IMG/VR virus record: IMGVR_UViG_3300035138_000049
Location: 1 to 51,505 of that record
Direction: 5' to 3' (one strand)
Length of the DNA stretch: 51,505 bases
Origin: a virus
Taxonomy: Duplodnaviria > Caudoviricetes
Every line of letters begins with the position of its first letter. Within the stretch, counting starts at the first letter, position 1. The position numbers were made by a program, and so were the translations under genes. Shown here piece after piece: positions 5,455 through 47,304 of this stretch. The notes under the pieces are model-generated. The model did no database searches. It was not told where the DNA came from and saw nothing but the letters and a program-made list of their open reading frames with translations.

Positions 5455-6628
5455 GCGCCCACACGCTGGCGGTCAGCGCGCATTGTACCTGCACCCGGCG
5501 CGGTTTCAGATTGTCGTGTGCGGACGGCGTTGGGGAAAAACGTTGTTTGGCAAGATCGCAGCAGCCCGCACGCTGTTTAGAGACGAACTTGATGTATGGT
5601 GGATATCGCCAACGTACAAGATGAGTAGCCAAGCGTGGCGCGATTTCAAGCGCGCGTTTGGCGCGTTTGCGGTGCGTGCCGATGGTTCGGAGCGGTACAT
5701 GGAATTTGGTAACGGCGCGGCGTTGACCGTGTGGACCGGCGAGCAAGCCGACACGATGCGCGGCGGCGCGCCCGGCCTAGCGGTGGTAGATGAGGCGGCG
5801 ATGATACGCAATGCGGAGATGTGGCCGGCGGTTATACGCCCCGCCCTGACCGACCACAGAGGCCGTGCGCTTTTTTTGTCCACCCCGCGCGGCCGCAACT
5901 GGTTCTGGGAGTTGTACAGTCGCGGCCTTGACCCGCTCTATCCGCAGTATAAAGGGTGGAATTTCCCCACGCGCCACAACCCGACGATACCGGCAAACGA
6001 GATAGACGAGGCGCGACGCACGTTGCCCGACCGCTTGTTTAGGCAAGAATACCTTGCTGAGTTCATCGAGGATGCTGGCGGGGTGTTTCGCGGCGTGTCT
6101 GAAGTGAGCACCGCCGAATACCGCGAACCCTACGAAGGGCAGTTCGTGATGGGGGTGGACTGGGGCAAGTCCAACGACTTCACCGTGATATCGGTGATCG
6201 ACGTGGGCACAATGACTCAGGTGGACATGGACCGCTACAACCAGATTGGGTGGAGTTTGCAGCGCGGGCGGCTGGTCGCGATGTACGAGCGCTGGAAGCC
6301 GTATCGGATCGTTGCGGAAGAAAATAGCTTCGGCGGGCCGAACATTGAACTCCTGCAAAATGAAGGCTTTCCCATTGAGGCGTTTACGACTACGCCACAA
6401 AGCAAGGGGCCGCTAATCGAGGGGTTGGCGCTTGCGATAGAGCGCGGTGAGTTGACACTATTGAATGACCGCGTGCAGGTGGCGGAGTTGCAGGCTTACG
6501 AGATGGAGCGGCTGCCGTCCGGCCGCTTCCGGTACAATGCGCCCGATGGCGGGCACGATGATACGGTTATTGCGCTGGCGCTGGCGTATCATGCGGTTGG
6601 CGCTGGCTCGTGGTACGAGTTCTGGTAG
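5411..6628 (+). CDS. terL: Terminase large subunit
   Basis: Walker A CGRRWGKT, Walker B VVDEAA, STPRG, nuclease GVDWG and HDDTVIALALA. Confidence 0.95.
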   Translation: MTTLALARTNYPTLERPHAGGQRALYLHPARFQIVVCGRRWGKTLFGKIAAARTLFRDELDVWWISPTYKMSSQAWRDFKRAFGAFAVRADGSERYMEFGNGAALTVWTGEQADTMRGGAPGLAVVDEAAMIRNAEMWPAVIRPALTDHRGRALFLSTPRGRNWFWELYSRGLDPLYPQYKGWNFPTRHNPTIPANEIDEARRTLPDRLFRQEYLAEFIEDAGGVFRGVSEVSTAEYREPYEGQFVMGVDWGKSNDFTVISVIDVGTMTQVDMDRYNQIGWSLQRGRLVAMYERWKPYRIVAEENSFGGPNIELLQNEGFPIEAFTTTPQSKGPLIEGLALAIERGELTLLNDRVQVAELQAYEMERLPSGRFRYNAPDGGHDDTVIALALAYHAVGAGSWYEFW

Positions 6629-6636
6629 GTGACATT

Positions 6637-9600
6637 ATGGGCTTTTTAGACTGGCTGCGCGGGCGCGGGCGCACTACTGCTGAAATTATCCCCCCACAGC
6701 TTTATTTCGTAGACAACGACGGCACGACACGGCCTGTCACCGGCAAGGTAGCGGAGTGGCACGCGCGCGCCACTCGGTCGAGCTTCACGCAAAACTTGAT
6801 CAATTCACTGCTGCGCGACTACACCAACGTGAGCGACGAGCACCTGGCGCGCGCGTACATTCAGAGCGTCACGGCGGCCGCGTGTATCCAGGTTGCCGCC
6901 GATCTCGCTTCGTCCATCCCGGTGCAGGTGGTCGCGCGCGGCACCGAAGAGGTGCTCGAACAGCACCCGCTCGTGGGGTTTGTGGAGGACGCTGAGGATC
7001 TGCTGTGGTTCGTCTCGGTGTGCCAAAATATCTGGGGCCGCGCCTACCTGCGCAAGCGGCGCAACCGGCACGGTTTCAACAGCGGGCTTGAGCCGGTGCG
7101 TCCTATCGATGTAGAGCCAATCGTGCAACCCGACTACGCCGGTCGGGATCGCATCGTCGGGTACTGGGTGCATAACGAGCGCGACCCGGTGCGCGTCGCC
7201 GACATGATCGACCTACCACTGTTCGACCCGTTCGACCGGCTCGGCGGCCTCTCGCCGCTTGAGTTCGTCTTGGTGCAGATCGGCATAGGCCGCAATCTTA
7301 GTATTCACGCCGCGAACTTCTTCTTCAACGGCGCGCGGCTGAGTGGCATTCTCAAAATGCCGGGGGCGTCACCGGACGAGAAGCGAGAAAGCGAGCGGCG
7401 GTTCAACGCCAAACACCAGGGGGCGCGCAACGCCTGGCGGGTGATGGCGACCAGCAGCGCAGAGGCGGGGTTCGAATCTACCCAGGCCGCGCCCGAAGAT
7501 TTGGCAATGCCGGAGCTTTCCGGCCTTGCCGACGCCGCCATTGCCCGCGCTTTCCAGATCGACCCCGTGCTGATCGGGTTGGGGCAGGCAAGCGACCCCT
7601 TGAGCGCGCAGGGCACGTTTAAGGCGATCGAAGCCAACCAGATACGCAGCAAAACGCTGCCGAAGGTGCGGCGCGCGCTCAAGGGTATCTCGCGCCAGTG
7701 GTCGTGGCGCGACTTCCAGCCGGCCAATCTGTACACGCTTGCGCCCGATATCAACAATATCGAGGCGCTCAGCCCGGTCACGTCCGAAAACGTCACGCTG
7801 GTGGAGCAATTGACGGCCAGCGGCAAGGTGACGCTGAACGAGGCGCGGCAGCGGCTCGGCTTTCCGGCGTATGACGGTGACAACGGTGAGGTGGTAGTGA
7901 TTAGCGGTGTGGCGTATCCGGTTTCGCAGATTGCGAAGGTGGCGCGCGAGAATGTGTTGAACATTGGTTTTGGTGCAGGAATGCCGAGCATCGGCGTGCC
8001 CGTCCTGCCGCAGCCGTCCGCCGAGGCCACAGAGCCGCGCCCCGAAAACGTAACGCAAACCGAACCAATGACCGGTATTCAGGTGCAGAACGCGATAGAT
8101 ACGCTGGAGCGCGCCGCCGCCGGATCGCTTGCGCAAGCGGCGGCCGTTGAAATTCTGGTGGCGCTCGGCTTTGACGGCGACCGCGCTGCGCAGATGGTTG
8201 CCGCCCAGATGAATGAGGCGACGACCACAACGGAGGCGCCTGAACCACTGCCGGGAAAAGCTGTGCCCCCGCAACTACCCGAACGCTCCAACGGCGCGCA
8301 GTTGAAGGAGCTTGCCAACTGGGAGGCGAAGGTCGCGCGGTCCACGCCCGACGTGGAGTTCTACCTCGACGCGCTGGCCGGCCACCCGTGCGCCGCGTTC
8401 GTGCGCGAGCGGCTTGAGGCGCGCGACGCCCCCGACGCGGTGTTCTGGGCTGCTCGCGCGTGGCTGGAGACAGGCGCCGCGCCCCCTTTCGCCCAAGCGG
8501 ACGAAGGTCCGCAACGGGCGACGCGAGGAGCCGAGGGTGATTTAGGATTTGGCTTTTGGGTGAGTTTTTCGGGTTCGGGCACTCTCGTCGATCTGCGTGC
8601 CCAGCTCGTCGATACCAACCCCGAAATAGACTGGCTGCACGAGAGCGAGTGGCACTTGTCGCTGTGCTACGCGGCAGAGCCGCAACTGACCAGCGCGATG
8701 GTTCCATTCATCGAAATGGACTACCTCGACATCGACATGCCTTTCGAGGTCGGCGTTGCCGGCCTCGACATCTGGGAGACCCACAAGGGCAACTGTCTGG
8801 TCGTTTTGATCGAGAAGGCGCGAGAGCTGGACGCCCTACAGCGCGCCCTGTGCATGGAATTTGACAACGCAGGTGTGCCCATCAATGACACATCACTGCC
8901 GGAGAATTACACGCCGCACATCACCCTCGCTTATGGTGTGCCCGACAAATTCCTTGAGCGAGACGGGTTGACATATTCCTCGGCAATTTTGACCATCGAT
9001 AATATCCAACTCGTTGACAAAGACGGCGTTTTCAAGGCGTGGCGCCCAAGTCGTGATGTGCCGGGCGAGCTGGTGCCGATGCTTCGCGCTGTCGCCGACG
9101 ACGTTGGTGCGACCCCCGAAGAATTCAAGCGCTACTGGCGACACTTCGACGCGCTCCAGGTGGACCTTGGCGCGGCGTGGCTCGAATGGATGGCGAGCGC
9201 GTGGGTCGGTATCAAGGACGCGCTTTCCGCCAACCCCGAAACGTACACGCCCAAGCTGCCACCCGCTGACGATCTGATACAACAGTGGCTCGGCACGGTT
9301 GACGAGCCAGGGCCTTACATGCAACTGTTTCTGGCCGGCGCCGCTGCTGGCGTTGACGCGCTGGAGACTGAAACGGCGGCGGATTATCGCAGCGTCACAC
9401 GGCAGGCTGACATTGCGATAGACTGGGAGCTGGTCAACCAAAACGCCTACGAGTTCGCGCGGCAGTACATTTTCGAGTGGCTGCCGGAGATCAACGCAAA
9501 AACCGAGCGGCAGCTGCGCCAGGTCATCGTCGAGTGGATCGAGAGCGGTGCGCCGATGGATGATCTGGTGGACACGGTGGAACGGATATTCCACGACCGA

Positions 9601-9882
9601 GAGCGCGCCAAACTGATCGCGCAAACCGAGGGGCTGCGCGCCTACAACGAGGGCGCGTACAACCGGTACGAGGCAGCGGGCGTCACGCAGGCGACATGGC
9701 AGACGGTGACGGATGAGTTCGTATGCCCCATCTGCAAACCCCTGCACGGCGTTGTCGGCGAGTTCCGCGCGGGCTGGGTACACCCCGGCGGGCCGGGCAA
9801 GGGCGCGAAATATAAGGGCCAGGTGTTCCGCCACCCCGCGCATCCCGGCTGCCGGTGCTTTAGCAGACCGAAGGTGCGATGA
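6637..9882 (+). CDS. Portal protein fused to a 2H phosphoesterase domain and a MuF-like minor head domain
   Basis: HK97-type portal motifs (GLSPL, FFFNGARLSGIL, IARAFQIDPVLIG, TLNEARQRLG); HLSL and PHITLAY 2H motifs; MuF RAKLIAQTE, CPIC, PAHPGCRC. Confidence 0.85.
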   Translation: MGFLDWLRGRGRTTAEIIPPQLYFVDNDGTTRPVTGKVAEWHARATRSSFTQNLINSLLRDYTNVSDEHLARAYIQSVTAAACIQVAADLASSIPVQVVARGTEEVLEQHPLVGFVEDAEDLLWFVSVCQNIWGRAYLRKRRNRHGFNSGLEPVRPIDVEPIVQPDYAGRDRIVGYWVHNERDPVRVADMIDLPLFDPFDRLGGLSPLEFVLVQIGIGRNLSIHAANFFFNGARLSGILKMPGASPDEKRESERRFNAKHQGARNAWRVMATSSAEAGFESTQAAPEDLAMPELSGLADAAIARAFQIDPVLIGLGQASDPLSAQGTFKAIEANQIRSKTLPKVRRALKGISRQWSWRDFQPANLYTLAPDINNIEALSPVTSENVTLVEQLTASGKVTLNEARQRLGFPAYDGDNGEVVVISGVAYPVSQIAKVARENVLNIGFGAGMPSIGVPVLPQPSAEATEPRPENVTQTEPMTGIQVQNAIDTLERAAAGSLAQAAAVEILVALGFDGDRAAQMVAAQMNEATTTTEAPEPLPGKAVPPQLPERSNGAQLKELANWEAKVARSTPDVEFYLDALAGHPCAAFVRERLEARDAPDAVFWAARAWLETGAAPPFAQADEGPQRATRGAEGDLGFGFWVSFSGSGTLVDLRAQLVDTNPEIDWLHESEWHLSLCYAAEPQLTSAMVPFIEMDYLDIDMPFEVGVAGLDIWETHKGNCLVVLIEKARELDALQRALCMEFDNAGVPINDTSLPENYTPHITLAYGVPDKFLERDGLTYSSAILTIDNIQLVDKDGVFKAWRPSRDVPGELVPMLRAVADDVGATPEEFKRYWRHFDALQVDLGAAWLEWMASAWVGIKDALSANPETYTPKLPPADDLIQQWLGTVDEPGPYMQLFLAGAAAGVDALETETAADYRSVTRQADIAIDWELVNQNAYEFARQYIFEWLPEINAKTERQLRQVIVEWIESGAPMDDLVDTVERIFHDRERAKLIAQTEGLRAYNEGAYNRYEAAGVTQATWQTVTDEFVCPICKPLHGVVGEFRAGWVHPGGPGKGAKYKGQVFRHPAHPGCRCFSRPKVR

Positions 9883-29760: not shown

Positions 29761-29838
29761 GCAAATAGATCACCCGCGTCGCTTCGGTGGCGCGGTGCGG
29801 GGCCGGCATTGCCGGCCCCAGTGCTTTTGCAAGAAAGC

Positions 29839-29867
29839 AAAAAAGGCCCGGTCTTATGACCGGGCCT
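29839..29867 (-). terminator. Intrinsic terminator at the convergence of both arms
   Basis: AGGCCCGGTC-TTAT-GACCGGGCCT with U-run on the - strand. Confidence 0.8.
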
Positions 29868-29871
29868 GAAC

Positions 29872-30363
29872 TTACTTGTTCAAAGTTGCTGGTTCATCAT
29901 GTGCCGTTGGGTAGTGCGGGCCAACGGCTAGACGCCGCAAGCCCTCGCGCCTGCGCCCACTCCACTCAACATCCTGGCGTTGACGCAAGGCGCTAACTTC
30001 TCGTTGCGACAACTGGATACTTCCATTGCCATCGGTGGCGCGGTGTCCCAACCTACGACAATCGTCTTCTGTGGCACCTGGGACAAAGCCGGTGCCATCC
30101 TCTCGGACAAACACAAAGCCGCGCCAGGGAAGATGGTAGTAGTAGGTATCACTGCACCAGCCCGGTACCATTGCTGAGTACTTGCGATCAAGGTGGCCGG
30201 CCTTGTAGAGTCGTTCCAATACAAACCCAGCTTCTGCCTCGCCGGCAACACTTGGGTCATGCTCGCGGAGTACATAGTACGCTCCGCTAGGGTCCATGAA
30301 GCCCTGCGGCCACGTCCCCCCAAGCCTCTCAGTGATGATGCTTAGAAGTTCTTCGTCTGTCAT
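29872..30363 (-). CDS. Hypothetical protein (module C cargo)
   Basis: ATG just after the conserved 37-bp element. Confidence 0.6.
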   Translation of the reverse strand: MTDEELLSIITERLGGTWPQGFMDPSGAYYVLREHDPSVAGEAEAGFVLERLYKAGHLDRKYSAMVPGWCSDTYYYHLPWRGFVFVREDGTGFVPGATEDDCRRLGHRATDGNGSIQLSQREVSALRQRQDVEWSGRRREGLRRLAVGPHYPTAHDEPATLNK

Positions 30364-30372
30364 TGTTTTTCG

Positions 30373-30409
30373 CCTTTCGCCCCGCAGGGCAACTCAACAC
30401 TAGTCTACT
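30373..30409 (-). repeat. 37-bp intercistronic element, copy 1
   Basis: 34/37 identical to 38389-38425; differences confined to the hairpin loop. Confidence 0.85.
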
Positions 30410-30719
30410 TATCTTCATGGGCCGTCTTCACGCCCGGCGTGTGATAGCGCGGCTCATTCAGCCACGCCTCGAATGCTTCGCGCGCAAACGCCCAGGTCTT
30501 GCCGACCTGCCGCGCGCCCTCGATGTACCCCAGTCTGCACGCCCGCCGGATGTTGCGGGCGTGCGGTGCGTCTGGGTACTGCTCGCTCGCCTTGGTTACG
30601 GTTAATTCGTCCATATGGCGCTGAATGTTCTCCCAAACCGGGCGATCAACCGACCATTCATCCTCAAGGCCGATTGACACAGCATAGGTTTCTGCGCCAG
30701 GATAGTCTTTTATCATCAT
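30405..30719 (-). CDS. HTH_17/excisionase-like DNA-binding protein (module C)
   Basis: LTVTKASEQY..HARNIRRACRLGYIEGARQVGKTWAF; AAGGAG RBS. Confidence 0.8.
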   Translation of the reverse strand: MMIKDYPGAETYAVSIGLEDEWSVDRPVWENIQRHMDELTVTKASEQYPDAPHARNIRRACRLGYIEGARQVGKTWAFAREAFEAWLNEPRYHTPGVKTAHEDK

Positions 30720-30733
30720 CCTGCTCCTTACTA

Positions 30734-30873
30734 GCCCTTGCGGGCGCCTCGCTCTATGCGGGCCGGCGGGGAGTTGCACCCCTTGCGCATCCCTGCGCAC
30801 CATCGCCATACTCTGGCAGCCCAGATGTGCCGGTTTTACCGACCGGCGCGGTTGCACCCCCACCGAAGTGGGG
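30734..30873 (-). ncRNA. Structured intergenic RNA with tetraloop hairpins and a degenerate tRNA-like 3' part
   Basis: cUUCGg, GGGA and GCAA tetraloop hairpins; GGGG-TGCAACT-CCCC T-arm-like hairpin. Confidence 0.45.
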
Positions 30874-30883
30874 AAAGACTTTC

Positions 30884-31210
30884 TTACTTATAGATGCGCT
30901 CAAGTTCATTTTTCAGGTCTTTGCACATTTCGACGCGGGTAGGATTGGTAATTTCGACTTCATCGCCGGTATCAGGATCAAACTCCTGCCAGTTTCGAAC
31001 GGCCCAATCTGCTGCATCATTGATGGCGTCGTCAAGTGACAGTTCGCCAGCCTCAATAACACTCATGGGCAACTCAATTTCGTTTGCCCACTGCCGCGTG
31101 AAATTGTACCATTCCGTTATCCAGTTTCCGTCATTTGACACCAAATTGATATCAATGACCCGACTTCCGTCCTCGCGCACATCCATTAATCGTTTGGCGC
31201 TCATTTCCAT
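30884..31210 (-). CDS. Hypothetical acidic protein (module C cargo)
   Basis: AAGGAG RBS. Confidence 0.7.
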   Translation of the reverse strand: MEMSAKRLMDVREDGSRVIDINLVSNDGNWITEWYNFTRQWANEIELPMSVIEAGELSLDDAINDAADWAVRNWQEFDPDTGDEVEITNPTRVEMCKDLKNELERIYK

Positions 31211-31224
31211 ATCTCCTTCTGCTA

Positions 31225-31284
31225 TTGGCCTGCCTCATCAGTGCGTGGGCTGCCATCCCACAACGACCGTCTCCGGTTTCGCCT
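31225..31284 (-). ncRNA. Hammerhead-like ribozyme (type II topology)
   Basis: C-GAAA-CCG(GAGA)CG-GTC...GTGGG/CCCAC stem...CTGATGA-G; stem II weak. Confidence 0.65.
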
Positions 31285-31386
31285 CTACTTTGGTGGTCCT
31301 GTTTGCCAGGCTTTCGCGGTGTGTTCCGCGTGTCTCCGGTTGTTTGGCGGTTCGAGCGCCCCGGTGTTTTTTGCTGTTGTGACTAT

Positions 31387-31415
31387 ATTATATCCCATAT
31401 CGGCTATAATGTCAA
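31387..31415 (-). promoter_or_regulatory. Sigma70-type promoter, module C
   Basis: TTGACA-17-TATAAT. Confidence 0.9.
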
Positions 31416-31435
31416 GTACCAAATAGTGAAATCCA

Positions 31436-31470
31436 CCCCCTAAAAAATGGGGGGGGGAGAGGGCTACCCG
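31436..31470. repeat. Conserved module-boundary site M1
   Basis: CCCCC-TAAAAAAT-GGGGG...GCTAC. Confidence 0.75.
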
Positions 31471-31471
31471 A

Positions 31472-31501
31472 ATAAAAGAAGCCCGGTGGTGAGCCGGGCT
31501 T
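31472..31501 (-). terminator. Intrinsic terminator ending module B
   Basis: AAGCCCGG-7-CCGGGCTT then CTTTTATT on the - strand. Confidence 0.75.
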
Positions 31502-31531
31502 AGTGGTTTGGTTGTGGGGTTGGTGGTGTGG

Positions 31532-32137
31532 TTACGCCACCTCCAGCACCGGGTTGCCCGCTGCGTCTGCCAAGATAACGTCACCGGATTCACCTCGGTG
31601 CGTGTAGGCAGTCATGCCATCTGTGTTGTATCCGATGTTTTCCAGATCGTGGCGCAGGTCGCTGAGTGTAGTGAGTTCCTCGTCGCTTCCCCATACGTCG
31701 CCAACGTACTTGATCTGGAAATTGCCGCCGTGCGTCTCAATCAGCCTGTCCAATGCGGTCAATTCGTACACTTCGTATTCCTCCTGTTTGTTCTGACTCA
31801 TATATGAACGAAAGCTAATTGCTGGAAATACCCACGCTCGCCCGCGCTTCTTCGCGCCGTCAATCAGCGGCGCCCAGCGGCGGACGGTGGAAACCGGCAC
31901 GCCGTACTCTTTCGCTGCCTCACTGACAGTTATCCAGCGCCAGCCAAGAGCCTCGTTGAAGCGGTGAAGGTCGTCGCCGAACACTTCACCGTTAATAGCG
32001 TCCTTGAAGGCTTGCAGATCGTCAGCATCGCCAATCAGAAAACCGTGCTCGTTGCCGTCCGTAACGGCGAACCATATCTCAGGCTCGCCGTCGTCGTTGG
32101 TCATTGCAATACGGTGTAGCTGAAATTTTGTTTTCAT
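31532..32137 (-). CDS. Protein with central HTH_17/excisionase-like domain (module B)
   Basis: WITVSEAAKEYGVPVSTVRRW..GAKKRGRAWVF. Confidence 0.8.
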   Translation of the reverse strand: MKTKFQLHRIAMTNDDGEPEIWFAVTDGNEHGFLIGDADDLQAFKDAINGEVFGDDLHRFNEALGWRWITVSEAAKEYGVPVSTVRRWAPLIDGAKKRGRAWVFPAISFRSYMSQNKQEEYEVYELTALDRLIETHGGNFQIKYVGDVWGSDEELTTLSDLRHDLENIGYNTDGMTAYTHRGESGDVILADAAGNPVLEVA

Positions 32138-32661
32138 CAGTCCACCTCAAAGACAAGCCGCTTTCCGTGCATGTGCGGATCGGCAACTGCCTTGATCGCC
32201 GCGCTGTAAGCCTTCTGCGTAAATGTATCCGGCGCGTTGTCGCGCCACGCCTGGAAGAGCGCTCGCCGGATATTGATGGCAATTTGGCGTATATTCAGGA
32301 TGCCATTCTCATTTAAAGCGAGTGGCTCGACGCTCGTGACAACCAAGACACTGAGTCTTTCCCAGCCGTTCGGGTGCGGCGACCGGAATTTAAATGAGCC
32401 ATCGTAGTGTGTTGGAAAGTTACCGCTTGTTGCGCGATCTTCCATTTCAAATCGAATTGGCAGTTCTTCTTCGACCGAAAATTGTTCAGTGATCTGGCTC
32501 AAATCGCCGCGAGATATTCGCCAGGCTTTATCCTGACCATCGAAGCGTGCGCCGGCTGCCTTGATTGCGTCTTTCATTTCGCTAAACGTGCCGCCAGTGA
32601 CGGTGTAATAGTGCGGCACAATTTCATCTTTCGCCTGAGTCTTGATCGTTACATAATCCAT
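32137..32661 (-). CDS. Hypothetical protein (module B cargo)
   Basis: GGTFSEMKDAIKAAGARFDGQDKAW; first ORF after promoter. Confidence 0.7.
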   Translation of the reverse strand: MDYVTIKTQAKDEIVPHYYTVTGGTFSEMKDAIKAAGARFDGQDKAWRISRGDLSQITEQFSVEEELPIRFEMEDRATSGNFPTHYDGSFKFRSPHPNGWERLSVLVVTSVEPLALNENGILNIRQIAINIRRALFQAWRDNAPDTFTQKAYSAAIKAVADPHMHGKRLVFEVD

Positions 32662-32699
32662 CTTTCTAGCTCCTGTATGTACTCAACTTCATTACATAC

Positions 32700-32728
32700 A
32701 GTATAAGCGATATTCGCCCATATGTCAA
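32700..32728 (-). promoter_or_regulatory. Sigma70-type promoter, module B, with an inverted repeat around the -35
   Basis: TTGACA-17-TATACT; AGCGATATTCGC / GCGAATACCGCT inverted repeat. Confidence 0.85.
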
Positions 32729-32748
32729 GCGAATACCGCTAACATTCG

Positions 32749-32783
32749 CCCCCTAAAAATTGGGGTAGGTGGCTACTCCGCCA
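32749..32783. repeat. Conserved module-boundary site M2
   Basis: CCCCC-TAAAAATT-GGGGTAG-gtgg-CTACTCCGCCA. Confidence 0.8.
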
Positions 32784-33168
32784 CCACTATTCCGCACTTT
32801 GGGCACCAATACGGACCGGTCAACTCGCCGTCACGGTCGCGATCCGGCGCGACGGCGGCGTCCAGTCCGCAGCGCTCACAAACCCAATCGATGTCCTCGC
32901 GACCATCCCCAAAGAACGGGTTCGCGTCTGCTTCGATAAGTGGCGCGTTGGCCGCCAGCTTGCCGAGCGCGACCAGTCCGCGCCGCTGCCGGAGATAGTC
33001 GGCCCACTCGTCAACAGAACGCTCGTCCCACAGGGGATATCGAGGGCCGAACGGCTCCCACTTGTCGATTTTCTCGGCAAGGCCACTTTGATAGAACGCT
33101 TGGCGGCTGGACAAGCCCAGCCGCTCAAGCGCTTCACGAGTGGTGAGGGTGTTGGGAGGGGAAGTCAT
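32773..33168 (-). CDS. HTH (excisionase/AlpA-like) + Zn-ribbon protein (module A)
   Basis: LTTREALERLGLSSRQAFY..PLWDERSVDEW; CERC...CPKC. Confidence 0.75.
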   Translation of the reverse strand: MTSPPNTLTTREALERLGLSSRQAFYQSGLAEKIDKWEPFGPRYPLWDERSVDEWADYLRQRRGLVALGKLAANAPLIEADANPFFGDGREDIDWVCERCGLDAAVAPDRDRDGELTGPYWCPKCGIVVAE

Positions 33169-33169
33169 G

Positions 33170-33388
33170 TTATCCCCCTGCATCAATTCTGTCTTCCGCG
33201 TCCTGCGCGTTGTAGCCCAGGAAAATCCAGTTTCCCGGTTGACCAGGAATAACTGCGCCAACGCCCAGCTTTGCGGAGCGCTTCCACCAGCCGCGCCGCG
33301 TGACGGGCGCGCCGCCGGTCTGTTCATAGCCGGTGGCGAAAATGACTTCGCTACCGACCAACTTTGCAAGACGCTTTTTTGCACTCAT
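33170..33388 (-). CDS. Hypothetical protein (module A cargo)
   Basis: GGAGG RBS, coupled. Confidence 0.6.
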   Translation of the reverse strand: MSAKKRLAKLVGSEVIFATGYEQTGGAPVTRRGWWKRSAKLGVGAVIPGQPGNWIFLGYNAQDAEDRIDAGG

Positions 33389-33741
33389 AGAACCTCCAAA
33401 ACTTCGATTGTATCGGCTTCGAAAATGATTTGATCGTGCTCGTGCTCGTGGCTACACAGGTAGCCGCAGCCACGAATTTTGAAACAAACCGCGTCGGGGT
33501 CGGCTATCTCGTACCACTCGCTACCGCACTCGCGGGATGTGTAGGCGAAAACCGCGCCGTCCCCTTCGGTCGCAGCACCGCCATCCGTGAAACCCAGGGC
33601 TTCGTTCCACTCACAACCTAGGAACCCGGTCGCATCAATGCTCTCTGCTGCATGCTGATCGGTGTAGTGGTAGCCCACAAAAACACCTTCCTCTTTTACT
33701 GTCAGATATTCCGCTTGATTGATGGTGTCTTTGTGGCTCAT
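33385..33741 (-). CDS. Hypothetical protein, possible ADP-ribosyltransferase-like fold (module A cargo)
   Basis: GYHYT..AESIDATGF..GDGAVFA pattern. Confidence 0.5.
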   Translation of the reverse strand: MSHKDTINQAEYLTVKEEGVFVGYHYTDQHAAESIDATGFLGCEWNEALGFTDGGAATEGDGAVFAYTSRECGSEWYEIADPDAVCFKIRGCGYLCSHEHEHDQIIFEADTIEVLEVL

Positions 33742-33774
33742 TTCCCCGTTCCGTTGCTTCGTTACTATAGTCTT

Positions 33775-33803
33775 ATTGTATCACGCTATTTACGCGATGT
33801 CAA
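33775..33803 (-). promoter_or_regulatory. Sigma70-type promoter, module A
   Basis: TTGACA-17-TACAAT. Confidence 0.85.
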
Positions 33804-33820
33804 TGGTTGGTAACGAAAGA

Positions 33821-33854
33821 CTACCCCTAAAAAGTGGGGGTAGCTACTCCGCCA
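33821..33854. repeat. Conserved module-boundary site M3, abutting the recombinase stop codon
   Basis: CTACCCC-TAAAAAGTG-GGGGTAG (perfect 7-bp arms) then CTACTCCGCCA. Confidence 0.8.
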
Positions 33855-34818
33855 GCATCTCCACCGCCGCATCTACCCGCTCCTCTTTGGTACGTGCGTA
33901 GTATGCCCGCGTGGTTTCCACGCTTCGATGCCCCAGGTAATCCTGCACCACATCAAGCGCGACCCCGGCATTGACCAGCCGGGTTGCGACGTAGTGGCGG
34001 AAGTCGTGCGGGTGGATCGCCGGCAGGCCCAGCGCCCGCCGGGCTGCATCGACCACGTGCCACACGGCTTGTCGGCTTAAAGCACGTCCCTCGTAGCGCT
34101 TGCTGTGCGCGATGAACAGCAGTTCGGTGTCACCCGCGTCGCGCTTTTCCAGGTACGCCTTGACATAATCCAGGCTCTCGCGAAAACGCAGGTAATAGCC
34201 GTGCCCGCCTTTGCCCTTGACGTATACGCGCCAAACGTCGTCGCCCTCGAATGCCTGGGCCGGGAAGTCGCCGGCTCGCAAAGAAAGCACCTCACTGATG
34301 CGCCCGCCGCTCTCAGCCAGGCAGTGCATCAGTGCGCGGTTGCGCAGCGTCTCCAGCGCCCACCGCGCGACCCGGTCGGGGTCCGGGTTGGTGGCAAGCT
34401 TCGGGGGCATGGATGCGCGGTCGTAGTACGCGATCACCTGCTCGATGCCTTCGGGTGGCTCCGGTGGTTTGTGGTCGGCGCGGAAGGTGCTGCCCTTGCG
34501 CGTCGCCTGGTCGAGCGCCCACAGCGCTTTTGCAAGCGGGAATGCGGCGGGGAGGTGGTCGTTGACCGACATCCACTCGAACCAGCGGCGGCACGCGCTG
34601 AGGTACAGCCTGACCGAAGCGGGGGACAGGTCGCGTTCGTCGAGCAGCCATTGCGTGAACTTGACCAGGATCGCCTTGTCGCCGGCGTCGAGCTGCACTA
34701 GGGGCTTGGGCGCGAACTCGATGAACAGATCAATGCCGCGCCGGTAGGTGTCGATCGTGTGGTGTGTACGCACCATCTCGGACAGGAAGGCGTCGCGGGT
34801 GAAGGGGTAGATCATCAT
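33844..34818 (-). CDS. Tyrosine recombinase/integrase (XerC/D-like)
   Basis: RNRAL..SGGRISEVL, KGKG, HPHDFRH, LGHRSVETTRAY; N-terminal core-binding domain. Confidence 0.95.
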   Translation of the reverse strand: MMIYPFTRDAFLSEMVRTHHTIDTYRRGIDLFIEFAPKPLVQLDAGDKAILVKFTQWLLDERDLSPASVRLYLSACRRWFEWMSVNDHLPAAFPLAKALWALDQATRKGSTFRADHKPPEPPEGIEQVIAYYDRASMPPKLATNPDPDRVARWALETLRNRALMHCLAESGGRISEVLSLRAGDFPAQAFEGDDVWRVYVKGKGGHGYYLRFRESLDYVKAYLEKRDAGDTELLFIAHSKRYEGRALSRQAVWHVVDAARRALGLPAIHPHDFRHYVATRLVNAGVALDVVQDYLGHRSVETTRAYYARTKEERVDAAVEMLAE

Positions 34819-34850
34819 ATCACCTCTAGTCGACAAGTTCTATCCCAATC

Positions 34851-35009
34851 CTAAAACAGAACATCAATTATGAAGGTGAGGGCCTTACCTATAATCAGTC
34901 CAAGTAGGACCGCACCGCCAATATCCTTAAGACAACTTCCGCCCTGTTTATCTGGAGGCCCAGGCTCACCCATTTGATTTTTAAAGAATGTTGGTCTTAT
35001 CCATCCCAT
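34851..35009 (-). CDS. 52-aa membrane peptide (not in ORF track)
   Basis: AAGGAG RBS; MGWIRPTFFK...IGGAVLLGLIIGKALTFIIDVLF. Confidence 0.5.
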   Translation of the reverse strand: MGWIRPTFFKNQMGEPGPPDKQGGSCLKDIGGAVLLGLIIGKALTFIIDVLF

Positions 35010-35072
35010 CGCATCGCTCCTTGAGTAGGGTAGGGCATCACCCCCGCGCCCGATTTTGCTTACATAATCATG

Positions 35073-35095
35073 GAAATGACACCTAATGTCATTTC
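35073..35095. promoter_or_regulatory. Operator-like palindrome upstream of the recombinase unit
   Basis: GAAATGACA-CCTAA-TGTCATTTC perfect 9-bp arms in AT-rich intergenic DNA. Confidence 0.6.
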
Positions 35096-35135
35096 ACCGT
35101 TACTATCACGAAATCTTGCGCCCACTATCCGAAAT

Positions 35136-36488
35136 TCAACCCGCCTCGGCCGCGTCGCCGTCGTCGGGTAGATCGTCCGGGCCGTAGTCCAGGGACATGT
35201 TCCAGCTCGTTTTTTGCCGAAATTCGCCCTCGATAACCCCTTTTTCACTGGTGTCCTGGTGTGGTGTGGTGTGGTGTGGTTGGTGTGGTGTGGTGTGGTG
35301 CCGGTAATTTCGCACGGGCGGCGGCAAAATTTCGGGTAGTGCCGGCACGTTGGGCGCGTCGAACGATGTCAGCCAGACGGTGTGTTTGAGTGCCTGGGTA
35401 ACGGTCATCGGCTGCCCATCCCTGCCGCGCGCCAGCACCCAACTGCTGTTTGGGTGCCCCGTCTCTTTTTCGATCAAGGCCAAATCGGAGAGGAACCCTA
35501 CCATTACGTGATAGGTATCTTCGCTGATGCTGGCGGCTGCGCACAACCGCCGGCGGCTGAAGCCCACCGGCGCATCCTCGCCGCGCGGGACGTGCTCTGT
35601 CCAACGCAAGAAGCCCAACGCGGCCAACTTCCACGCCTGCCGTACCTGCCGCTCACTGGCCCGGAACGCGGCATCCATCGCGTCGGGCTTGATCGCAGCG
35701 CGCAGTCGCTCGGCCCGCGTTGGTTCGTCGCCTGGCGCGGCCAGCGCCGGCGCGGGCGCGAAACCGGGCAGTGCGCGGGGTTCGCCGGTCTGCGCATCGA
35801 TGTACAAGCCGGCTTGCTCCATGATGAGCTGCCGGCGCGTGTAAATCGCGCGCTTGAGCGATAGGAACCGGGCGTAGTGCCACAGCACAATCGCGGCGGC
35901 AATCGTGGCGATGCTCACTATCGCAATTTTGGCGACGTGCCCGGTCTGCCGGTCCAGGTCAGCCTGGCCGGCCTTGCGCTCTGTTTCTTTCGCTTCGGTT
36001 TCGAGTTCTTTGGCGCGGGCGGCCTCCTGGGTGGCATAGGCGTCCTCCACGGCTTCCGCGCGCGCCGTTGCGGTGGCATCCGTCTGGTCGCGCTCCAGTG
36101 CAAGCGCCTGTGTCGTCGCGGTCGCCGCCGCGCTGTTGGCGTATGCGGTCGCGCCGGCGTTGTATTCCTCGACCTGCAACGTGAGCGCCAGCGCCGCGCT
36201 CGTGGCGTCGGCCTGAGCGCGCTCGTAGGCGAGCTGCGTTGCCATCGCATTACGCGCTTCGGCGGTGCTGGTCTGCTCGACGAAATACAGATTGTTCGCC
36301 ATTTCGCGGACGCTGGCGTTGGGGTCTGCCAGGGTCACGGTGGGGCCGGCGGGCATCACGGTTGGCGCTGGTGTCGCAGTGACGACCTCGACGATGCGCT
36401 CGGCTTGCGGGGTTTGTGCGGTGGTGCAGCCAGCGAGCAGGAGAAGGGCCAGGGCGGTAAGTATTACCCGGTTATACTTCCTGCCCAT
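35136..36488 (-). CDS. Lipoprotein-signal, Ala/Thr-rich membrane protein with C-terminal winged-helix-like region
   Basis: LLLLAG-C lipobox, TAT repeats, TM helix, FSRRRLC..SISEDTY..LSDLALI. Confidence 0.7.
   Translation of the reverse strand: MGRKYNRVILTALALLLLAGCTTAQTPQAERIVEVVTATPAPTVMPAGPTVTLADPNASVREMANNLYFVEQTSTAEARNAMATQLAYERAQADATSAALALTLQVEEYNAGATAYANSAAATATTQALALERDQTDATATARAEAVEDAYATQEAARAKELETEAKETERKAGQADLDRQTGHVAKIAIVSIATIAAAIVLWHYARFLSLKRAIYTRRQLIMEQAGLYIDAQTGEPRALPGFAPAPALAAPGDEPTRAERLRAAIKPDAMDAAFRASERQVRQAWKLAALGFLRWTEHVPRGEDAPVGFSRRRLCAAASISEDTYHVMVGFLSDLALIEKETGHPNSSWVLARGRDGQPMTVTQALKHTVWLTSFDAPNVPALPEILPPPVRNYRHHTTPHQPHHTTPHQDTSEKGVIEGEFRQKTSWNMSLDYGPDDLPDDGDAAEAG
35257..35300. 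repeat. (TGGTG)n microsatellite inside the CDS
   Basis: About 9 near-perfect pentamers encoding HHTTPHQPHHTTPHQ. Confidence 0.85.
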
Positions 36489-39155: not shown

Positions 39156-39368
39156 TCAACGGCAACCGCGCCGCCCCGCCTCCCGTTCCATCTTCGCCTT
39201 GCACCGCCCGCACACCGCCGCGCCATCCGGCAGCGCATCGACGACGCGCGCCCCGCTCGTTATCGGCAGACCGCACAACGGCGCGACCGCTTCGCCATCA
39301 TCAGCGGCGATGTGGTACACGTTGCGGTGGCGTGCGGTGGCGGTGGCGGTTTGGAGGTATTGGATCAT
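39156..39368 (-). CDS. Small Zn-binding hypothetical protein
   Basis: YH..PLCG..CGRC. Confidence 0.55.
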   Translation of the reverse strand: MIQYLQTATATARHRNVYHIAADDGEAVAPLCGLPITSGARVVDALPDGAAVCGRCKAKMEREAGRRGCR

Positions 39369-40354
39369 GGTTGTTCGCTACCCTCAAGCGTGGCCTCTAC
39401 AGACCACCCTAAATCTCGCGCCAGCAGCCGCCATGCAGTCGCAGCCACAGCCGGAACCTGCCCCTGTCCAGAGGCTCTAACCCGCTCCATCCTGGAGGCC
39501 ATCCCATCAACCAGTCTTGCCAGTCCGGGTTCAGTTGCCCACCATTCCCAGGGTTCATGCGGCCCTTCCTGCTCCCCGTCTTCAACAGCCTGCTCAGACC
39601 ATTGGTGTGCATCTTCTCTGCATCTGTCGCGAGCGGCGTCGGTAGCATTTCCCGCTCCCTGACCGCCTGGCCCAGGGTGGGGCCGGCCCCGTATCTCTCC
39701 CGACTCGCCCGACTGGTCGGTCTGTCGTCTTTGGTCGTTGGCGTCGGCCACACGCGCGACGGCTTCGCTTCCAAGCTGTCCTTGACCGCCGCCGGCAAGT
39801 CCCACCCGTGCGTCGCGGTAGCTTTCGCTTGCCCCCACAAACACGTTACGCGCGGCGTGGGCCACAACCCAGAGCCGGTCCCTCTGGTGATTGGCGCCAA
39901 CGGCGGAAGCCGGTATGCAATCCCACCGCACATCAAACCCGCCCTCGGCCAGGTCTCTTTGAACTCGTCCGTAATACCCATGACTGCCCCAAAGGAGCGC
40001 TGGTACGTTTTCCAAATAAACGTACTCTGGCTCGACCTCTCTAATGATGCGAATGGTGTCAGGCCAGAGGTTGCGTTCGTCGTCGCCGGCAAGCTGCTTT
40101 CCCGCCGCGCTAAACGGCTGGCACGGAAATCCCGCAGTGACGATATCCACTGATCCAGCCCAGGGACGCCCGTCGAATGTTCGGGCGTCGTCCCAAATGG
40201 GCGCGTCATCGAGGTATCCGTCCGCGATTCGCTGCTTGAGGACGGAGACGCAGTAGGCGTCGATTTCGACGTAGCAGGCCGTTCGCCATCCGAGCAGCCA
40301 TCGGGTGGCGAGTAATCCACCACCTGCGCCGGGAAATAGAGCCAACTCATACAC
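39365..40354 (-). CDS. C5-cytosine DNA methyltransferase, main polypeptide (motifs I-VIII and X)
   Basis: LFPGAGG, AGFPCQPFS, LENV, HQRDRLW, RVRASGQGQVP. Confidence 0.9.
   Translation of the reverse strand: MYELALFPGAGGGLLATRWLLGWRTACYVEIDAYCVSVLKQRIADGYLDDAPIWDDARTFDGRPWAGSVDIVTAGFPCQPFSAAGKQLAGDDERNLWPDTIRIIREVEPEYVYLENVPALLWGSHGYYGRVQRDLAEGGFDVRWDCIPASAVGANHQRDRLWVVAHAARNVFVGASESYRDARVGLAGGGQGQLGSEAVARVADANDQRRQTDQSGESGEIRGRPHPGPGGQGAGNATDAARDRCREDAHQWSEQAVEDGEQEGPHEPWEWWATEPGLARLVDGMASRMERVRASGQGQVPAVAATAWRLLARDLGWSVEATLEGSEQP
39409..40350 (-). CDS. Overlapping alternative-frame methyltransferase partner polypeptide (motif IX)
   Basis: 313-aa open frame within the MTase gene; three (W/L)PTP repeats; LNPDWQDWLMGWPPGW. 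Confidence 0.65.
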   Translation of the reverse strand: MSWLYFPAQVVDYSPPDGCSDGERPATSKSTPTASPSSSSESRTDTSMTRPFGTTPEHSTGVPGLDQWISSLRDFRASRLARRESSLPATTNATSGLTPFASLERSSQSTFIWKTYQRSFGAVMGITDEFKETWPRAGLMCGGIAYRLPPLAPITRGTGSGLWPTPRVTCLWGQAKATATHGWDLPAAVKDSLEAKPSRVWPTPTTKDDRPTSRASRERYGAGPTLGQAVREREMLPTPLATDAEKMHTNGLSRLLKTGSRKGRMNPGNGGQLNPDWQDWLMGWPPGWSGLEPLDRGRFRLWLRLHGGCWREI

Positions 40355-40416
40355 GTCTTACCTCCATCACATCACCCCCAACACCCTAAGCCACCACGCC
40401 GCGCCGCAGGGCGTCG

Positions 40417-40593
40417 TCACGGTCGATCATGGTACACCTCCGTTTGCAGCGCCTTCACCAGCCGTATCCGGTGCCCAACGAATGGACGTATCCGTTCCAG
40501 GCATTCGGCGCACATATAGACACGGTCGCCGTCGTGGTAGATGACAAGGCGCGTGGCGTCGTTGTGGCAGTTCTTGGTGGCGCAGGTGTTCAT
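40417..40593 (-). CDS. Small Zn-binding hypothetical protein
   Basis: CATKNC...CAEC; coupled. Confidence 0.5.
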   Translation of the reverse strand: MNTCATKNCHNDATRLVIYHDGDRVYMCAECLERIRPFVGHRIRLVKALQTEVYHDRP

Positions 40594-41738
40594 AGCATCA
40601 ACTCCTGAGTGACGAGTTTGCCATCGTCCGTAAGTGCGACGCGGTCCACCGGTTCGTTGCCCGTAGGCTCGTCGCCGTCCCACTTGTTCGGCCAGGTGCC
40701 GGCCGCGATCAACTCCCTGATGCGCGCCAACTCCTCGTCGTTGATCAGGTCCACACCGGCCCGCGCTTGGATATCCAGCACCCGCGCCAGCCCCATCTCG
40801 CGCGCTTCCATCGTCAGCGGCCCAAGCCGCTGCTGGTTTTTCGAATATTGGCCGTCTTTGCGCATCTCCCCGCCTGGTTTGCGGAGACGGTGCTGCGGCG
40901 CTTTCAGTTCGCGGTAGAGGGGCTTGAGTTCGAGCAGTGGGGCCAGGTGCGCCCACTCGTTGGTTTTCACCAGGCCCTCCAGCGCCGTATCCCTATCGAC
41001 GAGGTTGCAGCCGGCGCAGCCCGTGCGCACGTCCCCATCGCCGTAGACGGCCGCGATATCGGCCACGTCGAACCCGTGCTCGCCAAAATAGAGCCAGTCC
41101 CACACGTGGCAAAGCCGCCAGTGCAGGAGCGGGGCCAGCGTGTCGGCCACACTTTCGGGCGTTGCCTGCTGAAACCATCCCTGCCCACACTCGCCGCTGT
41201 CCTTCGAGCACGACAGCGCGATGCGCTGGTCCCGCGCAGCGCTTTCGCCCAATCTCACGCCGGTGAGCATCAGCAGCTTTTCGCCGGTGGCGTCGCGCAA
41301 GTCCTGCAACTCGCGCAGCATCGGCTCGACCTTGAGCTGCGGCGTACACCAGCGAAAGCGGTTTTTCGGCGGGGGCACGCCCCGGCCAAACATGTAGACG
41401 AAAAACCTATCATCCATCTCCGGCAGCACAACGTGCGCCTCAAGGCCCTGCCCGCGCAGTATATCCAGCAGTCGCATGGCCGACTGCTGGAGCGGCGGTA
41501 GTTCCATGCGCGTATCCGCATAAAGAACGGTGAGCGATTCTGGTGGGTCGATCTTGCCGACCTGGATCGCCCACGCCACGAGCGCGACTGTGGCCGTGCT
41601 GTCCTTGCCGCCGGAGTATGCGATTGCCCAGTGACGGTAGCGCTGGCCGTACTCCGCGACGCTGGCGAGGGACAGGTCGATGGCGTCGGTCAGCGTGAGG
41701 CGCTGATCTTCCCAAAGCGACGGCTGTCTCCCGTTCAC
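40590..41738 (-). CDS. PAPS reductase/DndC-like PP-loop protein
   Basis: AYSGGKDS, ADTRME, RWCTPQLK, GVRLGESAAR, RTGCAGC. Confidence 0.85.
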   Translation of the reverse strand: MNGRQPSLWEDQRLTLTDAIDLSLASVAEYGQRYRHWAIAYSGGKDSTATVALVAWAIQVGKIDPPESLTVLYADTRMELPPLQQSAMRLLDILRGQGLEAHVVLPEMDDRFFVYMFGRGVPPPKNRFRWCTPQLKVEPMLRELQDLRDATGEKLLMLTGVRLGESAARDQRIALSCSKDSGECGQGWFQQATPESVADTLAPLLHWRLCHVWDWLYFGEHGFDVADIAAVYGDGDVRTGCAGCNLVDRDTALEGLVKTNEWAHLAPLLELKPLYRELKAPQHRLRKPGGEMRKDGQYSKNQQRLGPLTMEAREMGLARVLDIQARAGVDLINDEELARIRELIAAGTWPNKWDGDEPTGNEPVDRVALTDDGKLVTQELML

Positions 41739-41986
41739 AAAAACGTCTCCTGTATCTCCTCCACCCTCAGCGCCGCGCGCATCTCCGGCTCGCTCTCCAT
41801 CGCGCCTAGCTCGTAGAGCAGGTCGAGCTTTTCGTGGGGATACGCCAGTTTGTCGAGCGCCTTCTCGACGAGCGGCCACAGGTCGGGGTAGCGGCCGGCG
41901 AGCTGGCCTGATGCGACGGCGATGTCGAGTTGATCCTGTAGGAATTCGGACGTTCGACGCCGTGCGATAACTGCATTACCGTTCAT
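41735..41986 (-). CDS. Hypothetical protein
   Basis: Coupled ORF. Confidence 0.55.
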   Translation of the reverse strand: MNGNAVIARRRTSEFLQDQLDIAVASGQLAGRYPDLWPLVEKALDKLAYPHEKLDLLYELGAMESEPEMRAALRVEEIQETFL

Positions 41987-46979: not shown

Positions 46980-47008
46980 TTGACACATGGCACGGTATAT
47001 GATATCAT
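46980..47008 (+). promoter_or_regulatory. Rightward early promoter
   Basis: TTGACA-17-TATCAT; two CTATATAG palindromes between the divergent promoters. Confidence 0.8.
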
Positions 47009-47037
47009 CGTATCAGTTTATTGAAAGGAGGCGCAGC

Positions 47038-47304
47038 GTGAGTAGAACGCGAGTTGTGAGCCGCGTCGGAGAGTTGCTGGCGGCAAAGGAAAAACTTGAA
47101 GGTCGCCGGATCACAAACAAGGAAATCGCGGACGCTACCGGAATGAATCCGACCAGTATCAACGAGTGGCGATGGGGCGACGTTGGCCGCTTTGACCAAA
47201 ACATGATCGCCGCCTGGTGCGACTACCTTGACATCGGGCCGGGCGAACTGTTCGTGGTCGAAAGAGACACCGAGGATTTTAGCGTTGCCGCCAGCATAGC
47301 ATAA
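47038..47304 (+). CDS. XRE/Cro-C1-type HTH regulator
   Basis: ITNKEIADATGMNPTSINEW...CDYLDIGPGELF; AAGGAGG RBS. Confidence 0.9.
   Translation: MSRTRVVSRVGELLAAKEKLEGRRITNKEIADATGMNPTSINEWRWGDVGRFDQNMIAAWCDYLDIGPGELFVVERDTEDFSVAASIA

Follow-up and report, generated by a model that had tools for sequence, protein, structure and literature searches.

A repeated palindrome–promoter cassette heading putative accessory units beside a phage integrase gene

In T4-type phages, promoter-early stem-loops (PeSLs) have been described as elements in which an upstream stop codon is followed by a stem-loop, frequently polyG/polyC, that can precede the −35 hexamer of a sigma-70 promoter (Arbiol et al. 2010, PMC2839356). 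PeSLs are said there to flank ORFans in plastic regions and to recombine with one another, giving rise to indels and mini-circles (see also Comeau et al. 2014, PMC4122927), and the authors present them as linkers for modular shuffling, liken them to integrons, and consider that the GGGG...CCCC stem is perhaps the target of a protein (PMC2839356). The same source summarizes the view of Hendrix and colleagues on the morons of lambdoid phages, which are not thought to owe any mobility to their regulatory sequences and lack a conserved element on their flanks. Here, we analyze IMGVR_UViG_3300035138_000049, a virus record of 51,505 bp whose whole length is hereafter called the window, in which a tyrosine recombinase (integrase) gene is followed by three small groups of genes (modules 1, 2, and 3), each headed by a short palindrome and a promoter. 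An earlier note on this DNA had proposed that the palindrome is a site at which the recombinase captures or shuffles cassettes. Arrays bounded by short sites are known from Acinetobacter plasmids, where pdif sites of 11-6-11 architecture flank modules in alternating orientation and are associated with a Xer-type tyrosine recombinase.

The cassette in the window and in other viral contigs

The 16-mer pattern CCCCTAAAAANTGGGG matches the window exactly three times, at 31437, 32750, and 33824, all on the + strand (three forward, zero reverse, and zero control matches over the whole record), as the earlier note had reported, and no further match was found in the genome at ≤2 mismatches. By shuffling, a mean of 0.05 matches is expected, and 0 of 100 shuffles reached three. 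Read on the transcribed (−) strand, each unit opens with CCCC-A-N-TTTTTA-GGGG, continues with a gap of 20, 21, and 21 nt (copies 1, 2, and 3, respectively), and reaches a TTGACA-17-TA(C/T)A(A/C)T promoter, the length of this spacer being kept among the window copies and its sequence not. The promoters in question are P1 (33775–33803, −; TTGACA-17-TACAAT, 11/12), P2 (32700–32728, −; TTGACA-17-TATACT, 11/12), and P3 (31387–31415, −; TTGACA-17-TATAAT, 12/12); counted from TAAAAA, the gaps amount to 25, 26, and 26 nt, the same distances as first given. Promoters scoring ≥11/12 number five in the genome, and three of these five bear the motif.

Copy 1 (33821–33843, −; 16-mer at 33824–33839) reads CTACCCC-TAAAAAGTG-GGGGTAG, with perfect 7-bp arms around a 9-nt center, and abuts the integrase stop codon (33844–33846), in line with its original description. 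Copy 2 (32750–32765, −) is a plain match to the 16-mer, and copy 3 (31437–31452, −) is preceded by a weak remnant (CGG-GTAGCC) of the block that forms the 3′ end of the integrase gene. Arms common to all three copies are limited to CCCC/GGGG (4 bp each), the 7-bp arms being found in copy 1 alone, and the three centers vary at one base (A, T, or G). The modules that follow measure 1074, 1313, and ~1590 nt (modules 1, 2, and 3), and their cargo genes are mutually unrelated, so that the sizes (1.1–1.6 kb) and unrelated contents announced by the earlier note both hold.

The same association is found beyond the window. When both strands of the IMG/VR sequences other than the window record were scanned for exact copies of the 16-mer, 57 loci were obtained, five of which have a promoter scoring ≥11/12 within 8–44 nt of the motif, when 0.126 would be predicted from random positions in the same loci. 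In the five contigs concerned (G001, G002, G003, G409, and G410; GC content 49–64%), the gap from the motif to the −35 is of 21, 21, 22, 10, and 11 nt, which defines two classes one helical turn apart, and the central 8 nt are oriented relative to the promoter as in the window in one contig and reversed in the four others. On G409, two such promoters lie 2.5 kb apart and share the same promoter-side flank (GATGACTTGC-TTGACA) with the center flipped, the second copy being degenerate. Homology is limited to about −20 to +120 around the motif (88% identity over 50 nt between the cassettes of G002 and G003), with unrelated flanks and cargo, and the genes headed by the cassette are related neither to the window cargo nor to one another. 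The cassette thus recurs before unrelated genes in other phages, with its loop in either orientation and at one or two helical turns from the −35. This independence from orientation, taken together with the conserved A-tract center and the helical phasing, argues that what is recognized is duplex DNA upstream of the promoter, rather than an RNA element or a recombination site with a direction. In chloroplast non-coding DNA, hairpin loops are known to undergo small inversions in the course of evolution.

On this basis, we consider it reasonably probable that motif and promoter form a composite regulatory cassette heading moron-like units, which would probably serve as a recombination linker as well. 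The cassette would span ~90 bp, made of a G/C-clamped palindrome with an A5-6 center, 20–21 nt, and a consensus sigma-70 promoter, and its three copies would head three independent accessory transcription units. The palindrome would act on duplex DNA as a promoter-upstream element, possibly as the site of a dimeric factor or as an element of the A-tract or alpha C-terminal domain (alpha-CTD) type, and that of copy 1 may additionally work as a weak terminator or insulator. The repeated cassettes could also provide patches of homology for the insertion, loss, and swapping of modules, as proposed for PeSLs, and at least one such event would have left the ~45-nt repeat, composed of the integrase 3′ end and the motif, that is found on either side of module 1.

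With regard to this last point, TGGCGGAGTAG terminates both the integrase gene and the 132-amino-acid (aa) gene that closes module 1. The 11-nt identity first noticed between these two gene ends is in fact part of a longer one: the block at the integrase end (33839–33857) matches 17/19 nt of its copy at the end of the 132-aa gene (32768–32786), the surroundings of copies 1 and 2 are 84% identical over 37 nt (−18 to +15 from the motif start), and the extended alignment has 22/28 identical columns, a score equalled by 1/5000 shuffles. Module 1 is hence flanked by ~45-nt imperfect direct repeats that consist of the last integrase codons, a 4-nt indel, and the motif, when the flank of copy 3 has only a marginal likeness to that of copy 2 (equalled by 61/5000 shuffles). 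Close homologues of the integrase end in ..LAE, ..LHE, or ..LSE, which indicates that the integrase-side copy of the block is the native one and that the last four codons and the stop of the 132-aa gene were borrowed from a duplicated integrase 3′ end. Such a repeat is what would be expected of a recombination scar, module 1 having entered, or having been duplicated, by recombination in this segment. As the homology reaches 28 nt on the distal side only and stops at the promoter-side edge of the motif, homologous exchange explains the repeat at least as well as a site-specific event would.

Several of the five contigs appear to be distant kin of the phage: the helicase, terminase, portal, and tail genes of the window have counterparts in G001 and G409 at 25–45% identity, and G002 shares a PAPS-reductase-like gene. 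This gene, located in the 39365–41879 (−) region of the window, recurs in G002 (L298, 2438–3676) and in G001 (L135, 13851–14819); in the window it lies beside a C-5 methylase, the methylase beside it in G002 is a different one, and in both G001 and G002 the motif–promoter cassette comes directly after it or one helix-turn-helix (HTH) gene later.

A separate observation was made on G410, where the core promoter and its leader occur twice (L390, 7991; L420, 28589), 85% identical over 91 nt, one copy with the 16-mer upstream and the other with a different palindrome (CCGTAAACGTTAACGG-like), which suggests that interchangeable upstream operators may be set on a common promoter.

Competing explanations of the palindrome

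Some points weigh against the composite regulatory cassette. The promoters and terminators were called from consensus matches (sigma-70) and folding, and are thus predicted ones. The spacing argument draws on eight promoter regions, which are partly homologous and hence do not represent eight independent events, and in two Anaerolineae chromosomes promoter-like sequences (TTGACG-18-TACTAT and TTTACG-18-TATAAT, read by eye) are separated from the motif by 16 nt, which does not agree with the 10/21 phase. As RNA, the hairpin is weak and uneven: in copy 1, a stem of 8 bp closes a loop of 9 nt, and UCUUUCGUU comes next (a 56-nt stretch folding at −19.9 kcal/mol, z −2.6), copy 2 has a 4-bp stem only, with two other 6-bp hairpins flanking it, and the hairpin of copy 3 is poorly defined, so that a terminator role cannot be general. 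No protein common to all motif-bearing contigs was found at E 1e-5. Lastly, no gain or loss of modules at the motif could be observed among relatives, given that close relatives were not found in GenBank, IMG/VR, JGI, or 401 Anaerolineae genomes.

The weakness of the hairpin bears directly on a first alternative, which we judge improbable, namely that the motif belongs to short intrinsic terminator hairpins of the host clade and lies near promoters merely through shared intergenic space. Copies 1 and 2 do come directly after stop codons, and two Anaerolineae genomes (G306 and G262) have 5 and 4 near-matches, against 0 for the control, of which 6/7 examined fall between called open reading frames (ORFs), several of them 20–80 nt past a stop codon and some with T-rich tails. 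Furthermore, a Ruminococcus metagenome-assembled genome (MAG) carries the same 16-mer with a 7-bp stem and a T7 tail, and when a degenerate motif with a promoter attached was sought in all GTDB species representatives, the 87 hits, in many phyla, included many ordinary stem-loops upstream of promoters. However, a 4–5 bp stem with an 8-nt loop is too weak for this role, copy 2 has no T tail, and copy 3 lies ~27 nt past a canonical terminator, behind which it would be redundant as a terminator. The loop (A5-6, T-flanked) is also conserved in either orientation, which again points to the recognition of duplex DNA rather than RNA; the gap to the −35 falls into two narrow classes one helical turn apart; and the neighboring upstream ORF of G003 is divergent. 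Since a low-copy family of intergenic hairpins exists in some Anaerolineae, the motif may have a terminator or insulator role.

The proposal of the earlier note, according to which the motif would serve the adjacent tyrosine recombinase as its core site, the enzyme capturing, excising, or shuffling promoter-bearing cassettes beside its own gene in an integron-like fashion, now seems unlikely to us. The motif does have inverted arms around an asymmetric 8–9 nt center, copy 1 is in contact with the integrase stop codon, the three copies all point the same way, and the integrase has a simple Xer-like architecture, of the type that acts on simple sites. The repeats made of the integrase 3′ end and the motif moreover bracket module 1, and their likeness fades away from the integrase gene (22/28 between copies 1 and 2, marginal between copies 2 and 3), as would be expected from successive insertions beside this gene. 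Yet only 4 bp per arm are conserved, and the centers vary at one base. Heterology in the overlap region normally blocks exchange by tyrosine recombinases, so that these one-base differences would hinder exchange between the window copies. The center is also flipped between paralogous and orthologous copies, when its asymmetry should set the direction of recombination, and the motif is phased to promoters in the five contigs, of which only G001 has a clear integrase homologue (42% identical, 6 kb from the motif); the match in G002 is weak and partial, and no homologue was found in G409, G410, and G003, three incomplete contigs. Across 164 locus ids of integrase homologues (1.08 Mb), the sole motif at ≤2 mismatches is that of G001, against 3 for the control pattern, and nothing motif-like was found downstream of 13 distant integrase homologues. 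As for the repeat, it runs 28 nt past the core site on one side, which homologous exchange fits as well or better. What remains of the recombinase-linked array is thus the presence of three self-promoted modules behind a tyrosine recombinase and of repeats bracketing module 1, but no link between the motif and the recombinase was found; conversely, the remark that this is not a classical integron is supported by an integron-integrase model scoring 36 bits against a cut-off of 265, and the alternative that the earlier note also gave, in which the motif is a promoter-upstream element at about −65, accounts better for the data.

A more elaborate form of this proposal, to which we give only a slender chance, would be an integron-like accretion, in which a Xer-like integrase inserts self-promoted and self-regulated cassettes at a site overlapping its own 3′ end. 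Each insertion would duplicate the integrase 3′ end and the 16-nt core, so that the array would log the captures with the newest beside the integrase gene, and the core would double as an upstream promoter element, whereby captured cassettes would be expressed on arrival.

It is very unlikely, in our estimation, that copy 1 is the core of the phage attachment site (attP) just downstream of the integrase gene, with copies 2 and 3 as relics or secondary sites and a secondary link to promoters. In lambda, the attP core lies just downstream of the integrase gene, and copy 1, directly 3′ of the integrase gene, has the same layout. The copy-2 variant of the 16-mer is moreover present once per genome in 5/401 Anaerolineae genomes, each time between script-called long ORFs, in an ordinary chromosomal setting with no integrase nearby, as an empty bacterial attachment site (attB) would be. 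Nevertheless, the exact 16-mer of copy 1 (N = G) is absent from the 401 genomes, where the reversed control has 4 hits against these 5; none of these genomes has two copies flanking a prophage; the single motif of the provirus-class contig G001 is internal, with phage-like genes on both sides; attP could equally well lie in a separate, AT-richer intergenic region that precedes the integrase gene (34837–35135); and no tRNA gene or fragment was found.

The last explanation, that the motif is recognized by a transcription factor of the host and is a common feature ahead of host promoters, is extremely improbable: the conservation of the motif over phages with no common regulator at E 1e-5 and the near-matches of G306 and G262 would suit it, but exact matches to the 16-mer never exceed one per genome in the 401 Anaerolineae (5 vs 4 for the control), and the 87 GTDB hits are scattered, with at most 2 stretches per MAG among those listed and the exact 16-mer in only 2, from which it follows that, in the sampled genomes, which may not include the true host, the motif is not a common host promoter site, the very case that the earlier note had set against its own proposal.

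Cargo genes, integrase, and genomic setting

The cargo has no homologues in any fetched locus, and PADLOC, NCBIfam, Pfam, and PHROGs gave HTH matches only. Module 1 comprises a 118-aa gene without a family (33385–33741, −) and a 72-aa ORF (33170–33388, −), neither of which has a Pfam, PHROG, PADLOC, or NCBIfam match, followed by the 132-aa gene (32773–33171, −), whose product has an HTH-like stretch at its N-terminus and a CxxC...CxxC at its C-terminus, ends in VVAE-stop, and has no Pfam match; its HTH likeness was seen by eye only, and its N-terminus failed to align with the HTH block found in the other three proteins. In the ESM Atlas, the neighbors of the 118-aa protein are ADP-ribosyltransferase-type folds (PARP, Arr, KptA, and DUF952) with TM scores of 0.55–0.59, all under the naming bar, which gives no more than a lead toward an ADP-ribosyltransferase-like fold.

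In module 2, a 174-aa gene (32137–32661, −) with a weak hint of DUF5710 (Pfam E 8e-4, below the cut-off) precedes a 201-aa gene (31532–32137, −), the product of which has a central HTH_17 domain of the excisionase type (Pfam 29.1 bits vs a cut-off of 27; PHROG_66) and is an ORFan, its sole match among 5.8 billion proteins being itself. The module ends at a canonical intrinsic terminator (31479–31501, −) with an 8-bp stem and a T-run (−13.8 kcal/mol, z −4.5). The ~170-nt leader of module 3 carries, between P3 and the first gene, a candidate type II hammerhead ribozyme (31224–31284, −): Rfam RF02276 scores it at 34.3 bits, below the gathering threshold of 37, with E 3e-4 over 5.6 kb, in a full-length match that includes the GAAAC, GUC, and CUGAUGA cores. 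Next come a 108-aa gene (30884–31210, −) with no Pfam, PHROG, PADLOC, or NCBIfam match, a 105-aa gene (30405–30722, −) whose C-terminal half is HTH_17-like below threshold (Pfam E 8.5e-4, 20 bits vs 27) and aligns with the HTH block of the 201-aa protein, and a 163-aa gene (29872–30363, −), again without a match in the same four collections. A strong intrinsic terminator (29844–29867, −; −24.1 kcal/mol, z −6.7) closes this module and faces that of the late operon (29799–29819, +). Modules 2 and 3 thus each have a canonical terminator and module 1 has none. The HTH_17 protein that the earlier note ascribed to every module is therefore borne out for the 201-aa protein, but not for the 105-aa protein, which stays below the cut-off, nor for the 132-aa protein.

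Judging from these features, the three units resemble independent, moron-like accessory transcription units, and they look acquired in view of their lower GC content, the canonical terminators of modules 2 and 3, and the ORFan cargo. GC content is indeed 0.54–0.57 across 30–34 kb, against ~0.60–0.65 elsewhere, and that of third codon positions (GC3) is also lower.

The integrase (33844–34818, −; 324 aa) has a SAM-like N-terminal domain and a catalytic domain (Phage_int_SAM_1, E 1.5e-7; Phage_integrase, PF00589, E 1.5e-29; PHROG integrase), and its catalytic residues R172, K202, H270, R273, H296, and Y305 are invariant across 15 aligned homologues. It scores 105–108 bits with Xer-like models, far under their equivalog cut-offs, and 36.3 and 26.7 bits with the integron-integrase models TIGR02249 (cut-off 265) and NF011946 (cut-off 435), and is an ordinary phage tyrosine recombinase of simple, Xer-like build. 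Used alone as a query, it retrieved 0 IMG/VR loci; a search with an alignment gave a best IMG/VR match of 42% identity, when the best was 47% in JGI metagenomes (the listed 82% and 63% homologues not being among the loci returned) and 44% in the 401 Anaerolineae genomes.

Protein homologues of the integrase include some at 82%, 89%, 63%, and 59% identity. Many of the Anaerolineae/Chloroflexi homologues (~45% identical, ~490 aa) bear an N-terminal TIR domain (PF13676, PF01582) and look like fusions of a TIR domain to a tyrosine recombinase. Upstream of the integrase gene, at 35064–35100 (−), an inverted repeat of 9–10 bp (GAAATGACA...TGTCATTTC) coincides in part with a weak promoter-like site (ATGACA-17-GATTAT, 9/12) and precedes an ORF of 52 aa whose GC3 is low and whose tail is hydrophobic; this may be an operator-controlled integrase promoter or a part of attP.

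The record is a complete one, with a 127-bp direct terminal repeat (1–127/51379–51505), and a DnaB-like helicase gene apparently spans its ends. Genes of the + strand, among which the DnaB-like helicase, terminase, portal-MuF, and tail genes, run from ~47 kb across the record ends to 29,760, and those of the − strand from ~46,790 down to 29,872, the divergent switch region between them being marked by a Cro-like HTH gene (46987–47304) and by a strong promoter whose −35 hexamer starts at 46980. The leftward arm finishes with, in this order, the integrase gene, the three small units, and the face-to-face terminators (29,799–29,867) that meet the late operon, so that the array sits between the integrase gene and the convergent end of this operon. 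The terminase large subunit (5411–6628, +) belongs to Terminase_6 (Pfam), and the adjacent 6610–9882 (+) is a single ORF of 1090 aa that combines a portal domain (88–417), a 2′-5′ RNA ligase-superfamily domain (711–805), and a Mu F-like head-morphogenesis domain (968–1083).

The phage is a temperate, uncultured one, and its host is probably a member of the Chloroflexota (Anaerolineae-like), the only clue being that the source-named integrase homologues come from Anaerolineae or Chloroflexi MAGs. Among GenBank phages, blastn returned 3 records, each covering ~1% of the query and none of them close; 51 loci of terminase relatives (38–60% identity) include 0 with the motif; and no non-coding nucleotide match to the fetched loci was found. 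A single sequencing run contains the window and is probably its source. One contig of this run, of 51,408 nt, is identical to the window, and low-depth fragments of a related integrase part from the window sequence at 33849, the 30 nt shown having no motif. The contigs of the run, which cannot reveal rare circles, gave no credible joint for a deletion or a circle; a joint from 30556 to 35219 was rejected as spurious, one of its sides being only 22 nt at 85% likeness, off the motif. The matches listed by a full-text search of the literature with the motif strings were unrelated, mostly primer or microRNA sequences.

Relation to integrons, pdif modules, morons, and PeSLs

As in an integron, a tyrosine recombinase gene is followed here by tandem, small, unrelated units bounded by repeated palindromes. 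The likeness ends there: the recombinase is not IntI (36 bits vs 265), the repeats are of 16–23 nt and are not folded attC sites, each unit has a promoter of its own when integron cassettes share one Pc, and the units are read in the direction that leads away from the integrase 3′ end. The modules also recall those bounded by pdif or other Xer sites, through short sites with inverted arms, but these arms are of 4–7 bp rather than ~11 bp, their center is of 8–9 nt, and all copies are direct.

Morons are closer in several respects, namely an own promoter, an own terminator (modules 2 and 3), an accessory position, a lower GC content, and genes without an assigned function. They differ from the window units in that the latter share a conserved upstream cassette and are stacked in tandem on the strand that carries the early operon.

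Overall, it is with PeSLs that the cassette is best compared, in the sense of an analogy of working that implies neither membership nor homology. In both cases, a stem-loop with G/C runs is joined to a sigma-70 consensus promoter and starts at the stop codon of the upstream gene, the element is repeated before ORFans in a plastic accessory region, and homology is limited to the cassette. The differences concern the phage as well as the element. The window phage is temperate, with an integrase, a Cro-like switch, an unrelated terminase (Terminase_6), a Phage_portal-MuF fusion, and a genome of 51.5 kb, and is not a T4-type myovirus. Its stem is CCCC...GGGG with an A-tract loop conserved in both orientations, and its palindrome keeps a fixed distance of one or two helical turns to the −35, whereas PeSL stem-loops are described in five positions; it has three copies, against the ~50 given for a T4-type genome; and no mini-circles were seen, in what are contigs only.

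Compared with PeSLs, what would be new here is the same design in a temperate, integrase-bearing lineage, together with an invertible A-tract center and a fixed phasing. If this reading is correct, the PeSL principle, in which a conserved terminator–promoter cassette expresses and insulates accessory ORFans and marks the points at which they are swapped, would reach beyond lytic T4-type myoviruses to temperate phages of poorly studied, uncultured hosts. It would also reveal a short DNA element with an inversion-tolerant A-tract center, helically phased to the −35, which could lead to a promoter-upstream factor in Chloroflexota-type hosts, and motif and promoter combined could be used to look for accessory or lysogenic-conversion units in related phages from metagenomes.

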